The position numbers and the translations under genes are program-made. From assembly GCA_963776425.1 (NCBI GenBank), contig CAVZMG010000002.1, positions 1,122,732 to 1,186,731 on the forward strand: a stretch of DNA of 64,000 bases, given 5' to 3'. This document shows, one piece after another, positions 35,710-40,128 of this stretch; the first letter of the stretch is position 1, and each line of letters begins with the position of its first letter. Below the pieces are notes generated by a model. It was not told where the DNA came from, did no database searches, and was given only the letters and a program-made list of their open reading frames with translations. The DNA is from an uncultured Actinomycetes bacterium (lineage in GTDB: Bacteria > Actinomycetota > UBA4738 > HRBIN12).

Positions 35710-36567
35710 ATGAGCGATGTTCCCGGCGGTCCCACGCCTCCGCCTCCTCCTCCCCCTCCTCCCATGATGGGAGGACCGCAGGGCGGCATCCCGCCCAAGG
35801 GGCTCGGCGACATCCTCTCGGCGGCGTTCAACCTCTACAAGGCGAACGCCTCGAAGCTCCTCGTGATCGTGGCGATCGTCGTCGTGCCCCTGTCGTTCAT
35901 CAGCTCCCTGCTGTCGGGAGTCGTGTTCGCCACGGGGACCACGACGGAGGTGATCTTCGGCAGGACGGTCGAAGTCCCGGTCACGCGCGGCATCTTCATG
36001 GGCTTGTTCGTCGGGGCGATCGGCGCGGCGATCTCGATCATCATCTGGGCGATCCTCGAGGCCGCGATCATCCGCGCAGCCGCCCAGGCGACGATCGGCG
36101 ACCCGGTCGACCCAGAGGCGAGCTACCGGTACGGGTTCAAGCGGATCGGCAGCGTCATCCTGGTCTCGCTGCTCGTCGGACTCGCCGTGTTCGGCGGCCT
36201 GATCCTGCTCGTGATCCCCGGTCTCATCTTCGCCGTCTTCCTGTGCGTGGCGATCCCGGCGCTCATCGTCGAGAACCGGCGAGGCACCGACGCGATGAGC
36301 CGATCATGGAACCTGGTCAAAGGACACTTCTGGCATACCGTGGGCGTGGTCGTCGTCGCGGGGTTGATCACCGGGGTCATCGACGGGATCATCAGCTCGA
36401 TCGGGGGCAACGCCTGGTTCACCCGCTGGGTCTTCACCGCGATCGCGACGGTCCTCACCGCGCCGTACTCCGCGCTCGTCCTGGTCCTGCTTTACCTGGA
36501 TCTGCGCGCGCGGAGCGAGTCGCTGACGGCGGACGCACTCCGGTCCGAGCTCTCCGGGAACGGCTGA
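35710..36567 (+). CDS. polytopic membrane protein with Pro-rich N-terminus (PPPPPPPPPMMGGPQGG)
   Basis: GAAGGAG SD; 6 predicted TM helices; first gene of a plus-strand string with 11/65/5-nt gaps. Confidence 0.5.
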   Translation: MSDVPGGPTPPPPPPPPPMMGGPQGGIPPKGLGDILSAAFNLYKANASKLLVIVAIVVVPLSFISSLLSGVVFATGTTTEVIFGRTVEVPVTRGIFMGLFVGAIGAAISIIIWAILEAAIIRAAAQATIGDPVDPEASYRYGFKRIGSVILVSLLVGLAVFGGLILLVIPGLIFAVFLCVAIPALIVENRRGTDAMSRSWNLVKGHFWHTVGVVVVAGLITGVIDGIISSIGGNAWFTRWVFTAIATVLTAPYSALVLVLLYLDLRARSESLTADALRSELSGNG

Positions 36568-36578
36568 GGCGTTCCCAA

Positions 36579-37829
36579 GTGACCGATCTCGATCTGGCGG
36601 CGATCCGCGCCCGGTTCCCGGCGCTCGCGCGGACGGGAGACGACGGGCGTCCGGTCGTCTATGCCGATGCACCCGGCGGGTCGCAGGTTCCGCAGACCGT
36701 GATCGACGCGATCGCCGCACACCTGCGGAGCGGGATCTCGAACACGCACGGAGCGTTCGCGGCGAGTCATGAGACAGATGCGCTGATCGCCGACGCGCGC
36801 GACGCCGCGGCAGACATCACCGGCGCCGATCCGGGGGAAGTCGTGTTCGGGCCGAACGCGACCACGCTCCTGTTCCAGCTCTCGCGGTCCTTCGGACGGA
36901 CGCTCCGTCCCGGAGACGAGGTCGTGGTCACGAAGCTCGACCACGACGCCAACGTCAGACCGTGGATCCTTGCGGCCGAGGACGCCGGCGCCACCGTGCG
37001 CTGGGTCGACATCCGAGACGAGGATGTGACGCTCGATCTCGCGTCGTTCGACGCGGCGCTCTCGGACCGCACCCGGCTGGTCGCGTTCACCCTGGCGTCC
37101 AACGCCGTCGGCACGATCCCGCCGGCCGCCGAGCTGATCCGGCATGTGCACGAGGCCGGCGCGCTCGCGGCGGTCGACGGCGTGCATCTGGCGCAGCATC
37201 GGGCACTGGACCTCCATGGACTCGACGCCGACATCCTCGCGTGTTCGCCGTACAAGTTCTTCGGGCCACACCTCGGCGTGCTCGCCGTTCGCCGCCACCT
37301 GCTCGAGGAGTGGACGCCGTACAAGCTGCGGCCCGCGCCCGATACGGCGCCGGAGCGCTGGGAGACGGGCACGCAGAACCACGAGGGACTCGCCGGCATG
37401 ACCGCCGCGGTCAACTACCTGGCCGACGTCGGACGCAGCGCCGGCAGACCCGTCGGAGACACCCGGCGACACGCGGTGGTCGCGGCGTACGACACGATCT
37501 CCGCACACGAGCGCGTCCTGTCGCACCGGTTCCTCACGGGCCTCGGGCGGCTGCCACGCGTGCGGCTGTGGGGGGTCGGCGATCCGACACGCATGGACGA
37601 ACGCACGCCGACGTTCGCGATCCGTGTCGGGGACCAGGATCCGCTGAAGACCGCCACGGAGCTCGGCCGGCGTGGCATCTACGTCTGGGACGGGCACTAC
37701 TACGCGATCACGGTGATGGAGCGGCTGGGACTCCTCGACACTGGCGGCGCGGTACGGATCGGCTTCTGCCACTACCACTCGACCGACGACGTGGATCGCG
37801 TGCTCGAGGCGCTCGCCGACCTATCGTAG
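36579..37829 (+). CDS. class-V aminotransferase / cysteine-desulfurase-family protein (SufS/CsdA-like, GTG start)
   Basis: PLP fold with SPYKFFGP lysine region and C-terminal ...[21 protein letters not shown] typical of cysteine desulfurase-like subfamily. Confidence 0.75.
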
Positions 37830-37894
37830 CGCCGCCCGGCTCGCCCCGGCCCTCGCCGGTACAATCCCCCCGACTCCCCCACCTCGAACGGAGC

Positions 37895-39076
37895 ATGACC
37901 ATGCGCATCCTGATCCTCGGCGGCGACGGGTACCTCGGATGGCCCACCGCCATGCGGTTCTCGAACCGTGGCCACGAGGTCCACGTCGTCGACGACTATC
38001 TGCGCCGCCGAGCGCACGCGGAGGCTGGAACCGACTCCCTCACCCCGATCCTCGCGGGTCTCCCCGAACGCGTCGCCGCCTGGAAGGACGTGACCGGCAA
38101 GGAGATCGGGTTCACCGTGGGCGACCTGTGCGATTGGGACGTGACCGAGGCGGTGTTCCGTGAGTTCCGCCCCGACGCCGTCGTGCACTACGGTGAGATG
38201 CCGTCGGCTCCGTACTCCATGAAGGACCGCGAGCACGCCGTGTTCACGCAGACGAACAACGTCGTGAACACGCTGAACGTGCTCTTCGCGATCGAGACGT
38301 TCGCGCCGGAGTGTCACCTGGTGAAGCTCGGCACGATGGGTGAGTACGGGACGCCCAACATCGACATCGAAGAAGGGTTCCTCGAGATCAACCACAACGG
38401 TCGGTCCGACTACCTCCCGTTCCCGAAGCTGCCCGGCAGCTACTACCACCTGTCCAAGGTGCACGACTCTCACAACATCCACTTCGCGTGCCGAGTACGC
38501 GGACTGCGCGCGACGGATCTCAACCAGGGCGTCGTCTACGGCATCGAGACGGAGGAGACGGCGCTCGACGAACGGCTCCTGACGCGGTTCGACTACGACG
38601 ACGTGTTCGGCACCGCCCTGAACCGGTTCTGCGTGCAGGCGGTGATCGGTCACCCGCTGACGGTCTACGGCAAGGGTGGCCAGACCCGCGGCTACCTGAA
38701 CATCGTCGACACGCTGCGGTGCGTCGAGCTCGCGGTGCTCCATCCCGCCGAACCAGGTGAGTTCCGGGTCTTCAACCAGTTCACCGAGCAATTCTCGGTC
38801 CTCCAGCTGGCCGAGCACGTGCAGAAGGCCGGGGCGGAGATCGGTCTCGACGTCGCCGTGCAGCCGATCGACAACCCCCGCGTGGAACTCGAGGAGCACT
38901 ACTACCGCGCGACCCACACGAAGCTGCTCGACCTCGGGCTCGAACCGCATCTGCTCTCCGACGCTCTCGTGGAGTCGATGTTCGCGGTGATCGAGCGCCA
39001 TCGGGGCCGGGTGAACCTGGAGCACATCCTGCCTCAGGACCGCTGGCGCCCAGGCGTGAGCGCACCCAGCGCGTAG
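37895..39076 (+). CDS. sqdB: UDP-sulfoquinovose synthase (SQD1/SqdB/Agl3 family)
   Basis: Near-identical blocks to plant SQD1: [100 protein letters not shown](L)EEHYY. Confidence 0.85.
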
Positions 39077-39081
39077 CTCAG

Positions 39082-40128
39082 ATGCCGGCGCTCCGGATCC
39101 TCGGCGGCATCGCAGCACTGGCGTACTTCATCCTCACGATCCGCCGCTACCGGCGCCGCCAGATCAGCCGGCTGAACCTGATCATCTCGTGCGCGCTCGC
39201 GATCGTGGTCGTGCTGCTCGCCGCGGCTCCATCGGCGTTCAACCCGATCTTCACGCGGTTCAACTTCGGCCCGGGCAACGACCGGCGTCTGATCTTCGTC
39301 CTGATGGTCGCCGTCTTGGTGCTGTTCGGACTCGTCCTGCGTGTGCAATCGATCTCCGACGTGAACGAACGGAGCATCCGGCTGCTCGTCGAGGCGCTGG
39401 GCCAGGAACGGTTCGACTGGGACCGCGTGGCGGCGCTGCCCGAGGGACCTCGATTGGTGACGATCTCGCCGGCGTACAACGAGGCGGAGAACGTCGCGGC
39501 GGTGATCGAGGCGATGCCGGCCGACGTCGAGGGGTACCGCGTCGTCCCCGTCGTGGTGAGCGACGGCTCCGAGGACGGGACGGCGAGAGTCGCACGCGAG
39601 GCCGGGGCGTTCGTCGCGGAGCTGCCGATCCGGCGCGGCGGAGGTCTCGCGCTCCGGGTCGGCTACGACGTCGCGCTGCGGATGGGCGCCGACATCGTGG
39701 TCACGCTCGATGCCGACGGACAGCATCTCCCGGAGGAGCTCGACGTGATGATCGGGCCGATCGTGCGAGGAGAGGCCGACTACGTCAACGGCTCACGCCT
39801 GCTCGGCGAGTTCGAGAAGGAGAGCACGATCCGGCACTTGGGGGTGCACTTCTTCTCCCGTCTGGTCACACTCCTCACCGGCACGCGCGTGACCGACATC
39901 TCGAGCGGCTATCGCGCGGCGCGCGCCGACCTGCTCCGTGACCTCGTGCTCGAGCAGGATCAGTTCTGGACGAGCGAGATCCTGATCGAAGCCCTCCGGC
40001 ACCGCGCGCGCATCGCAGAGGTCCCGGTCACGATCCTCGCGCGCAAAGGCGGCAAGTCGAAGAAGCCGAAGTCGTTGAAGTACGGCTGGAACTTCTCGAA
40101 GGTCATCATCCAGACCTGGCTCCGCTAG
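39082..40128 (+). CDS. membrane-anchored family-2 glycosyltransferase (DPM1/GtrB-like)
   Basis: Two N-terminal TM helices then GT-A domain (ISPAYNEAENV, VVVSDGSEDGT, DADGQH DxD motif); 5 nt after sqdB. Confidence 0.75.
   Translation: MPALRILGGIAALAYFILTIRRYRRRQISRLNLIISCALAIVVVLLAAAPSAFNPIFTRFNFGPGNDRRLIFVLMVAVLVLFGLVLRVQSISDVNERSIRLLVEALGQERFDWDRVAALPEGPRLVTISPAYNEAENVAAVIEAMPADVEGYRVVPVVVSDGSEDGTARVAREAGAFVAELPIRRGGGLALRVGYDVALRMGADIVVTLDADGQHLPEELDVMIGPIVRGEADYVNGSRLLGEFEKESTIRHLGVHFFSRLVTLLTGTRVTDISSGYRAARADLLRDLVLEQDQFWTSEILIEALRHRARIAEVPVTILARKGGKSKKPKSLKYGWNFSKVIIQTWLR

Follow-up and report, generated by a model that had tools for sequence, protein, structure and literature searches.

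A sqdB–glycosyltransferase gene pair of uncultured Actinomycetota and its predicted role in polyprenyl-phosphate-linked sulfoquinovose formation

Introduction

Sulfoquinovose (SQ) is regarded as the sugar of phototroph sulfolipids; elsewhere it is found in a few rhizobia and Rhodobacter, and in archaeal N-glycans. What, then, is the role of a predicted uridine diphosphate-sulfoquinovose (UDP-SQ) synthase in an uncultured, non-phototrophic soil member of the Actinomycetota, and with which partners does it act? Here, we address this question for a 64-kb stretch of contig CAVZMG010000002.1 (approximately 69% G+C, in the following called the window), in which the synthase gene, sqdB, is located between the genes of a class-V aminotransferase-fold enzyme (AT5) and of a membrane-bound glycosyltransferase of family 2 (GT2). 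A sequence-only reading of this region had proposed an SQ glycoconjugate pathway made up of all three enzymes. The underlying observation is confirmed by our analysis, and its interpretation is supported in part. With moderate confidence, we regard the two genes sqdB and DUF2304::GT2 (37895-40128) as the functional unit, in which UDP-SQ would be converted to SQ-P-polyprenol, followed by extracytoplasmic transfer by a glycosyltransferase of the GT-C type.

In the literature searched, SQ biosynthesis is described only for SqdB/SQD1 together with SqdX/SQD2 or SqdD-type transferases, and for Agl3 in Sulfolobus N-glycosylation. Reviews on SQ cycling presume the SqdB-SqdX route. Within a literature coverage that is incomplete, no papers were found that link sqdB or SQ to Actinobacteria, to the orders treated here, or to polyprenyl or dolichyl monophosphate carriers. 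The genes themselves are common in uncultured Actinomycetota, and databases routinely annotate the pair as "UDP-sulfoquinovose synthase" and "hypothetical protein". New is the functional pairing with its implications, which would combine two known kinds of system, namely SQ synthesis and glycosylation of the three-component or polyprenyl-phosphate (Pren-P) sugar type.

Results and Discussion

An orthologue of SQD1 and SqdB

Real reading frames of the window were picked by their third-position GC content. Around sqdB, five co-directional genes are located on the forward strand (35066-40128), with third-position GC between 0.88 and 0.93. The sqdB gene ends at 39076 and starts with ATG 37895 (393 aa) or, preferably, with ATG 37901 (391 aa). 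The second start is favoured because a GGAG motif lies 7 nt upstream of it (37890-37893), and because homologues comprise 391 aa and begin with MRILILGG.

The encoded short-chain dehydrogenase/reductase (SDR) matches the SQD1 structures 1qrr/1i24 with 553 bits (E = 4e-165). Its residues 4-386 align to residues 3-384 of 1qrr, and the identity to Arabidopsis SQD1 is 61%. From its sequence, the protein is a true SQD1/SqdB orthologue and thus a predicted UDP-SQ synthase; the family assignments of the SDR, AT5 and GT2 are all far beyond chance. It is of the plant/cyanobacterial-type subfamily, without the insertions of the S. meliloti/Rhodococcus type. Features in common with SQD1, SqdB and Agl3 are GxxGxxG, T145-M-G, E148/Y149, Y182-H183-xx-K186, H96 and Q209.

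Active-site residues were compared in an alignment of 82 sequences, comprising the window SqdB, SQD1 and the 80 closest species-level relatives. Nine residues, namely H96, T145, M146, E148, Y149, Y182, H183, K186 and Q209, do not vary among the window SqdB and all 80 relatives. The window protein reads GTMGEYG and keeps T-M-G, the SDR triad T145/Y182/K186 and His183. SQ synthases are told from 4,6-dehydratases by T-M-G in place of [ST]DE (PMC8987622).

One profile result requires a comment. The NCBIfam model NF041015 (UDP-sulfoquinovose synthase) has a cutoff of 575 bits, and the window SqdB scores 480 bits. Arabidopsis SQD1 and S. meliloti SqdB, both known members, reach 485 and 332 bits, such that the cutoff excludes them as well and a score below it is uninformative. 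After the SQD1 control, the shortfall was dropped as an argument against SqdB membership.

A DUF2304 domain fused to a GT2 glycosyltransferase

The gene downstream of sqdB (39082-40128, forward strand) follows after a gap of only 5 nt, and the two genes are probably translationally coupled. In Pfam, its product matches DUF2304 (PF10066) with 27.4 bits (cutoff 25.5; aa 4-106, nt 39091-39399) and Glycos_transf_2 with 59 bits, above the gathering score (aa 128-288, nt 39463-39945). The PF10066 domain is also precomputed for most homologues of this GT2. A DAD-x-QH metal/nucleotide motif occupies D210-H215, where LDADGQH is aligned to DADLQH of the dolichyl-phosphate mannose synthase DPMS (5mlz), and D210, D212, Q214 and H215 are invariant across 33 homologues. 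The best NCBIfam profiles are AglJ (102 bits), PpgS (86 bits) and Dol-P-hexose transferase (82 bits), while Pyrococcus DPMS (5mlz) and ArnC are the best sequence matches in the PDB. In the AlphaFold2 model (mean predicted local distance difference test score, pLDDT, 82.6), N-terminal membrane helices (2-24, 30-59 and 67-109) precede a GT-A domain, which is followed by an amphipathic helix at the C-terminal end. A Foldseek search with this model returned ArnC first, with GpgS, DPMS and GtrB also at the top.

By sequence, the protein is a GacJ/Rv3632-type DUF2304 membrane domain fused to a GacI/PpgS/AglJ/DPMS-like catalytic domain. Its architecture is that of the polyprenyl-monophosphate-sugar synthases, and it is predicted to be a polyprenyl-phosphate sulfoquinovose synthase. 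In unfused form, this architecture is known from the Streptococcus pyogenes system. There, the GT2 enzyme GacI forms GlcNAc-P-undecaprenol and is bound by GacJ, a three-helix membrane protein of the DUF2304 family, which also reduces the Km of GacI for undecaprenyl phosphate (Und-P) (Rush et al., 10.1101/180810). DUF2304-GacI fusions occur naturally, and PpgS/Rv3632 of M. tuberculosis act alike; the GT-C enzymes GacL and Rv3779 move the sugar to the acceptor outside the membrane (10.1101/180810; PMC9671496).

Several differences to these systems deserve mention. GacI/GacJ and PpgS/Rv3632 are N-acetylhexosamine (HexNAc) synthases which, like the window GT2, pair a catalytic domain with a three-helix DUF2304 protein. 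In the window protein, however, both parts belong to a single polypeptide that has DUF2304 as its N-terminal domain, and the donor would be UDP-SQ instead of UDP-GlcNAc or UDP-GalNAc. The PpgS score of 86 bits, at a cutoff of 370, places it in a different subfamily. The fold resembles that of ArnC, DPMS and GtrB from the three-component systems ArnC/ArnT, DPMS/PMT and GtrB/GtrA/Gtr*. Their membrane helices are C-terminal, whereas the anchor of the window GT2 is N-terminal, and a sulfonated sugar cargo is not described for these systems in the literature searched. Compared with known SqdB systems, the partner here is a Pren-P-type GT2 and not a GT4 (SqdX/SQD2) or GT8 (SqdD) enzyme. The sequence-only reading had already set the GT2 apart from the GT4 and GT8 sulfolipid synthases and suggested a polyprenyl-phosphate carrier or a lipid acceptor. 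The carrier-lipid route is the best reading of our data as well, now refined to a fusion of the GacJ-GacI/Rv3632-PpgS type.

Conservation of the gene pair

One genome per GTDB species was scanned for sqdB. At least 564 stretches encode close SqdB relatives, mostly labelled Actinomycetota, Thermoleophilia or Solirubrobacterales, and the notion that the gene is unusual for an actinobacterium finds no support in this distribution. Likewise, thousands of metagenome proteins, mostly labelled as belonging to one of these three groups, are close relatives of the window SqdB. The best 80 stretches were analysed. Their labels are Actinomycetota, "Actinomycetes", Solirubrobacterales, Thermoleophilia and Gaiellales, together with one Nocardioides metagenome-assembled genome (MAG) and two Chloroflexota.

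A DUF2304-GT2 homologue adjoins sqdB in 67 of the 80 loci. It is located directly downstream on the same strand in 32 cases (gap 1-153 nt, median 28) and upstream in divergent orientation in 35 (distance 91-7127 nt, median 306). Among the 13 loci where no GT2 adjoins, the flank is truncated in six. The two arrangements occur in unrelated contexts, one between DnaE2 and PknB genes and the other with GatAB, IlvBN and menaquinone (Men) genes. Since the pair is kept in two orientations and in unrelated contexts, it behaves as a module and not as a product of passive synteny.

PMT_2-type GT-C genes, one or two per locus, are found beside sqdB in 18 Solirubrobacterales loci; where the contig carries both GT2 and sqdB, they lie between the two. 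This GT-C family matches Pfam PMT_2 with 35.6 bits and shows weak matches to Agl23/STT3. By analogy, such a neighbourhood is what a three-component carrier-lipid glycosylation system would predict. Nine close relatives carry one or two polytopic membrane proteins of 650-750 aa (family c19) by sqdB-GT2, often in tandem; examples inserted beside the pair are found at positions 3869-8117 of locus L005, 1448-3418 and 10214-12166 of L014, and 7957-12007 of L023. Apart from one weak DUF6541 match, no Pfam or NCBIfam family was found for the c19 proteins, which we consider candidate acceptor transferases.

Other sqdB contexts exist. In three loci, two labelled Solirubrobacterales and one "Actinomycetes" (L030, L034 and L045, approximately 6000-10500 in each), the neighbours of sqdB are a processive membrane GT2 (Glyco_tranf_2_3) and a polysaccharide deacetylase, in place of the DUF2304-GT2. 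This arrangement hints at an SQ-containing exopolysaccharide. A cultured actinomycete, Pseudonocardia autotrophica, carries sqdB on plasmid pPA12743CP (L081, NZ_AP018921.1, 273939-289155). The product has 60% identity by tblastn and 61% in a global alignment, and Arg101, a residue considered in the next section, is kept. The gene is divergent from an HpnB/CruG-like GT2, with an SbnA-like pyridoxal 5'-phosphate (PLP) enzyme, a major facilitator superfamily transporter and MurJ nearby; it belongs to a different type of SQ cluster, which is possibly directed at lipids. A Rhodococcus qingshengii plasmid (L083, NZ_CP054208.1, 196186-213340) encodes a proteobacterial-type SqdB with 44% identity. Here, a SulP transporter is located upstream of sqdB, and the genes behind it encode a hypothetical protein of 639 aa, a PgaC/NodC-like processive membrane GT2 and an alkyl sulfatase.

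Proposed pathway and competing explanations

The pathway that we propose has three steps. First, as orthology suggests, SqdB would make UDP-SQ from UDP-glucose and sulfite, the latter most likely from general metabolism. Second, the GT2 would load a polyprenyl monophosphate (undecaprenyl or decaprenyl phosphate) with SQ, using UDP-SQ as the donor on the cytoplasmic side of the membrane. The product would be beta-SQ-P-polyprenol, as suggested by family membership, domain architecture and conserved linkage; the beta configuration is expected from the inverting mechanism of GT2 enzymes. The fused DUF2304 domain may act as GacJ and Rv3632 do, i.e., by binding and stimulating the GacI/PpgS-like catalytic part. 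Third, SQ-P-polyprenol would be flipped, and a GT-C enzyme encoded elsewhere in the genome would transfer SQ outside, to a wall glycopolymer or a protein; this step is suggested by analogy and by the GT-C genes of the Solirubrobacterales modules.

A number of observations weigh against this pathway, and they are given here together with the explanations they would favour. The first concerns SqdB itself. The window protein reads EMPSAP where SQD1 and Agl3 have EQRSAP, i.e., Arg101 is replaced by Pro, and all 80 relatives have Pro, Ala or Ser at this position. An Arg at position 101 is shared by SQD1, Agl3, S. meliloti SqdB and the homologues from the Pseudonocardia plasmid and from Rhodococcus, the last three of which show EQR[SA]AP. 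According to mutagenesis of Agl3, the essential residues are His95, Arg101, Met145, Tyr182 and Lys186, plus Glu147 and Tyr148, and the R101A variant is inactive. The window SqdB has this set complete save for Arg101. The claim that it matches essentially all diagnostic blocks is misleading in that the exchange at position 101 had been overlooked. Clade-wide loss of Arg101 and a non-phototrophic actinobacterial host distinguish this protein from the known SQD1/SqdB/Agl3 systems.

It could be argued that the exchange has altered the chemistry of SqdB, such that UDP-glucose-5,6-ene is released or a nucleophile other than sulfite is used, and the cargo is another C6-modified glucose. Agl3 indeed yields UDP-glucose-5,6-ene without sulfite, and the inactive R101A variant, together with Pro, Ala or Ser in all 81 clade members, fits this explanation. 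It is opposed by the invariance of all other active-site residues tested, His183 and T-M-G included, and by the 55-61% identity to SQD1 found for the four clade members that were checked. We consider altered chemistry improbable. Position 101 presumably aligns with Lys84 of GalE, which we take to be a ligand of the NAD+ phosphate and not of the substrate. A basic residue at this position is not known from other sugar-nucleotide SDRs. We therefore treat the loss of Arg101 as an unexplained clade marker and not as evidence of lost function.

The second group of observations concerns the acceptor of the GT2. All its NCBIfam matches are under the equivalog cutoffs. In Foldseek, soluble glucosyl-3-phosphoglycerate synthases (GpgS) score as high as ArnC, DPMS and GtrB, and hence the fold alone leaves the acceptor unfixed. 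Homologues of the GT-C (c8) and c19 membrane protein families were not found in the 64-kb window, nor was a GT-C or flippase gene found among that part of the window open reading frames (ORFs) which was scanned against Pfam. Comparison of c19 with the PMT_2 cluster by hhalign gave a probability of 2.4%, and a GT-C identity of the c19 proteins could not be shown.

These results leave some room for a GT2 that puts SQ straight on a membrane lipid or another final acceptor, yielding for example a beta-sulfoquinovosyl diacylglycerol-type lipid, in the manner of the cyanobacterial GT2 monoglucosyl-diacylglycerol synthase. Lipid glycosyltransferases do belong to the GT2 family, every match to a Pren-P synthase profile is below its cutoff, the window scans gave neither GT-C nor flippase, and other actinobacterial sqdB clusters contain GT2s of the HpnB/CruG-like or processive type, with lipids or polymers as acceptors. 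On the other hand, the closest relatives by profile, sequence and fold are Pren-P and Dol-P sugar synthases, DUF2304 is so far known only as a partner of Und-P/Pren-P sugar synthases, and GT-C genes, whose products use Pren-P-sugars, are located within the module in the 18 related loci. Direct transfer is thus judged unlikely, and transfer via SQ-P-polyprenol remains the preferred explanation.

The third point is the donor. The predicted specificity of the GT2 for UDP-SQ derives from gene adjacency alone (67 of 80 loci), and all 80 sqdB loci are from uncultured organisms, nearly all of them labelled as MAGs. If adjacency were without functional meaning, the GT2 would serve ordinary envelope glycosylation by making a polyprenyl-P hexose or HexNAc, and an unlinked transferase would use the UDP-SQ. 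The donor is not readable from the sequence, and GacI, PpgS and AglJ use UDP-GlcNAc, UDP-GalNAc and UDP-hexose, respectively, which would be compatible with such a division of labour. It is hard to reconcile, however, with the persistence of the pair in 67 of 80 species genomes, in two orientations, with unrelated flanks and gaps down to 1-28 nt. Moreover, 20 of the 80 loci were mapped gene by gene, and no GT4 or GT8 transferase of the SqdX/SqdD type was present among the recurring sqdB neighbours scanned against Pfam or NCBIfam, many neighbours being unscanned. We regard a meaningless adjacency as very improbable.

The aminotransferase-like enzyme and the supply of sulfite

Upstream of sqdB, the AT5 gene (36579-37829, forward strand) encodes a class-V aminotransferase-fold PLP enzyme. 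Its start, GTG 36579, yields 416 aa, a homologue-like length, and lies 11 nt past the stop of the preceding gene. The protein matches TIGR01976 (am_tr_V_VC1184) over its full length with 464.9 bits (cutoff 352.35), compared with 130-218 bits for SufS/CsdA models and 175 bits for SufS-type structures. Fold and PLP lysine are common to AT5 and the class II desulfurases SufS and CsdA: SPYK is found opposite SGHK of the SufS-type structures 9ddd/8kg1, and the C-terminal Arg is kept. The catalytic cysteine, in contrast, is absent from AT5. The class II signature is RxGHHCA (PMC8300815); the corresponding active-site loop of AT5 reads WDGHYYA, with Tyr at the position of the desulfurase Cys and Trp in place of Arg. 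A scan of metagenome proteins found WDG[HND]YYA in AT5 relatives down to 49% identity, and the whole AT5 family thus lacks the catalytic cysteine. As judged by this loop, the "cysteine desulfurase-like" proteins of TIGR01976 cannot act as persulfide-forming desulfurases, and a common annotation is corrected thereby. No publication on the function of TIGR01976 was found.

In the sequence-only reading, AT5 was thought to provide a dedicated sulfite supply. Acting on cysteine sulfinate as a desulfinase, or as a lyase of similar kind, it would feed sulfite to SqdB, and AT5, SqdB and GT2 would form a three-enzyme pathway. The AT5 gene does have the orientation of sqdB and ends 65-71 nt before it; the 65-nt gap between its stop (37829) and ATG 37895, like the 5-nt gap behind sqdB and the gene positions, had been given correctly. 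The two genes are neighbours in 21 of the 80 sqdB loci and, among AT5 loci of at least 60% identity, in 15, and AT5 keeps the PLP lysine and the carboxylate-binding Arg without the persulfide cysteine. From work of Mihara et al. on Cys mutants of E. coli CSD, CsdB and IscS, desulfination is said to be independent of that cysteine. A desulfinase role is thus chemically possible for a Cys-less enzyme, although no support for it was found here, and the missing cysteine neither requires nor shows such an activity.

By genomic context, AT5 is only weakly linked to sqdB. All 21 linked loci belong to the closest subclade, in which the whole region from DnaE2 to PknB is syntenic. AT5 is missing from the other 59 loci, including one (L010) that has the genes for a DUF402 protein, a membrane protein, SqdB and GT2, and in four loci membrane-protein genes are inserted between AT5 and sqdB. 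Conversely, five close relatives (L088, L089, L090, L092 and L101) carry AT5 without sqdB, and in the first four DUF402 is still found upstream. Most AT5 loci of at least 60% identity, including loci without sqdB, have DUF402 in front of AT5. The tighter partnership of AT5 is with DUF402 and not with sqdB, which suggests that DUF402 and the TIGR01976 enzyme have a separate two-gene function. Approximately 50 distant AT5 relatives (49-54% identity) with the same loop have no sqdB nearby. A search of their neighbours for sulfur genes, e.g., cysteine dioxygenase, found none; the neighbours encode homoserine-dehydrogenase-like proteins, a branched-chain aminotransferase (BCAT), aldehyde dehydrogenase and peptidases. 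Finally, a TACAAT box (37861-37866) inside the gap between AT5 and sqdB hints at a separate promoter of sqdB. A scan for promoters and terminators gave no signal exceeding the expectation from shuffled sequences. A dedicated sulfite supply by AT5 is therefore unsupported by our data and, in our judgement, rather unlikely. Only in the closest relatives are AT5 and the genes for the DUF402 and membrane proteins conserved chromosomal neighbours of the sqdB-GT2 pair, and their membership in the module is not demonstrable.

Rv3778c (PDB 3cai), a class-V "possible aminotransferase" encoded beside the GT-C gene Rv3779 in M. tuberculosis, was considered as a parallel to AT5. It was rejected as a different protein, as the PLP lysine is aligned to Ala; by this alignment, Rv3778c may be catalytically degenerate.

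Surroundings of the locus

The run of five genes opens with the DUF402 gene (35066-35668, forward strand), which encodes a FomD-like putative nucleotide(-conjugate) hydrolase. It matches Pfam DUF402 with 41.6 bits and the NCBIfam FomD model with 127 bits, the latter under that model's cutoff. This gene is located upstream of the range 35710-40128 to which the sequence-only reading had assigned the operon. The three genes named there are indeed found in this range, but the gene that opens it (35710-36567, forward strand) went unmentioned in its title. From the translation, its product is a membrane protein of 285 aa that is Pro-rich at the N-terminus and contains several membrane helices. Its similarity to GPDPase_memb/YciC-like proteins is weak (28.3 bits against Pfam GPDPase_memb, slightly below the cutoff). 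With tblastn, matches were obtained in 13 of 80 sqdB loci and 6 of 80 AT5 loci, with synteny in the closest relatives only. At the other end of the run, the stop of the GT2 gene overlaps the stop of a convergent gene.

The chromosomal setting is that of a core region, with a dcw cluster comprising ftsW, a penicillin-binding protein and a murF-mraY fusion. The latter is a single 805-aa ORF (15251-17668, reverse strand) with the N, M and C domains of Mur ligases (residues 24-440) and an MraY-type Glycos_transf_4 domain (534-721), and appears to encode a MurF-MraY fusion protein. A triad of MoxR AAA ATPase, DUF58 and TgpA-type transglutaminase genes is located at 23618-28085 on the forward strand. 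A mutasome-like cassette on the reverse strand (29253-34937) consists of a DinB/ImuB-like polymerase (29253-30425), DnaE2 (30430-33678), a DUF6338 membrane protein (33987-34628) and DUF6504 (34692-34937). In close relatives, this cassette and the sqdB region are syntenic. Further neighbours in the window are a pseudouridine glycosidase with a kinase, an AIR-synthase-like gene and a PknB-like Ser/Thr kinase with a long C-terminal extension, whose homologue in locus L164 has Pkinase and PASTA domains.

An ORF near the window end (62977-63981, reverse strand) encodes the C-terminal part of a STAS-containing SulP sulfate permease; its distance to the sqdB module is approximately 23 kb. Besides this ORF, no gene for sulfate or sulfite assimilation was seen among the window ORFs scanned. 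An Rfam scan of the whole window gave no match, and hence no riboswitch.

Implications

From a biological point of view, we tentatively suggest, with less confidence than we place in the two-gene module itself, that abundant uncultured soil Actinomycetota, including Thermoleophilia/Solirubrobacterales, make SQ, export it as a polyprenyl-phosphate-linked donor and decorate wall glycopolymers or surface proteins with this permanently anionic sulfonate sugar. If true, this would represent a new class of SQ glycoconjugates together with a lipid-linked intermediate. With the pair conserved in hundreds of soil actinobacterial species, it would add a branch to SQ biosynthesis, namely extracytoplasmic transfer via a lipid carrier, with the linkage set by the GT-C enzyme. 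For enzymology, the SqdB clade without Arg101 provides a testable point on the reaction mechanism. For the soil sulfur cycle, these organisms would constitute a sizeable non-phototrophic source of SQ that feeds sulfoglycolytic soil bacteria. The uncultured lineages themselves would possess sulfonated cell envelopes, which would bear on surface charge, phosphate sparing and interactions with phages and antibiotics.

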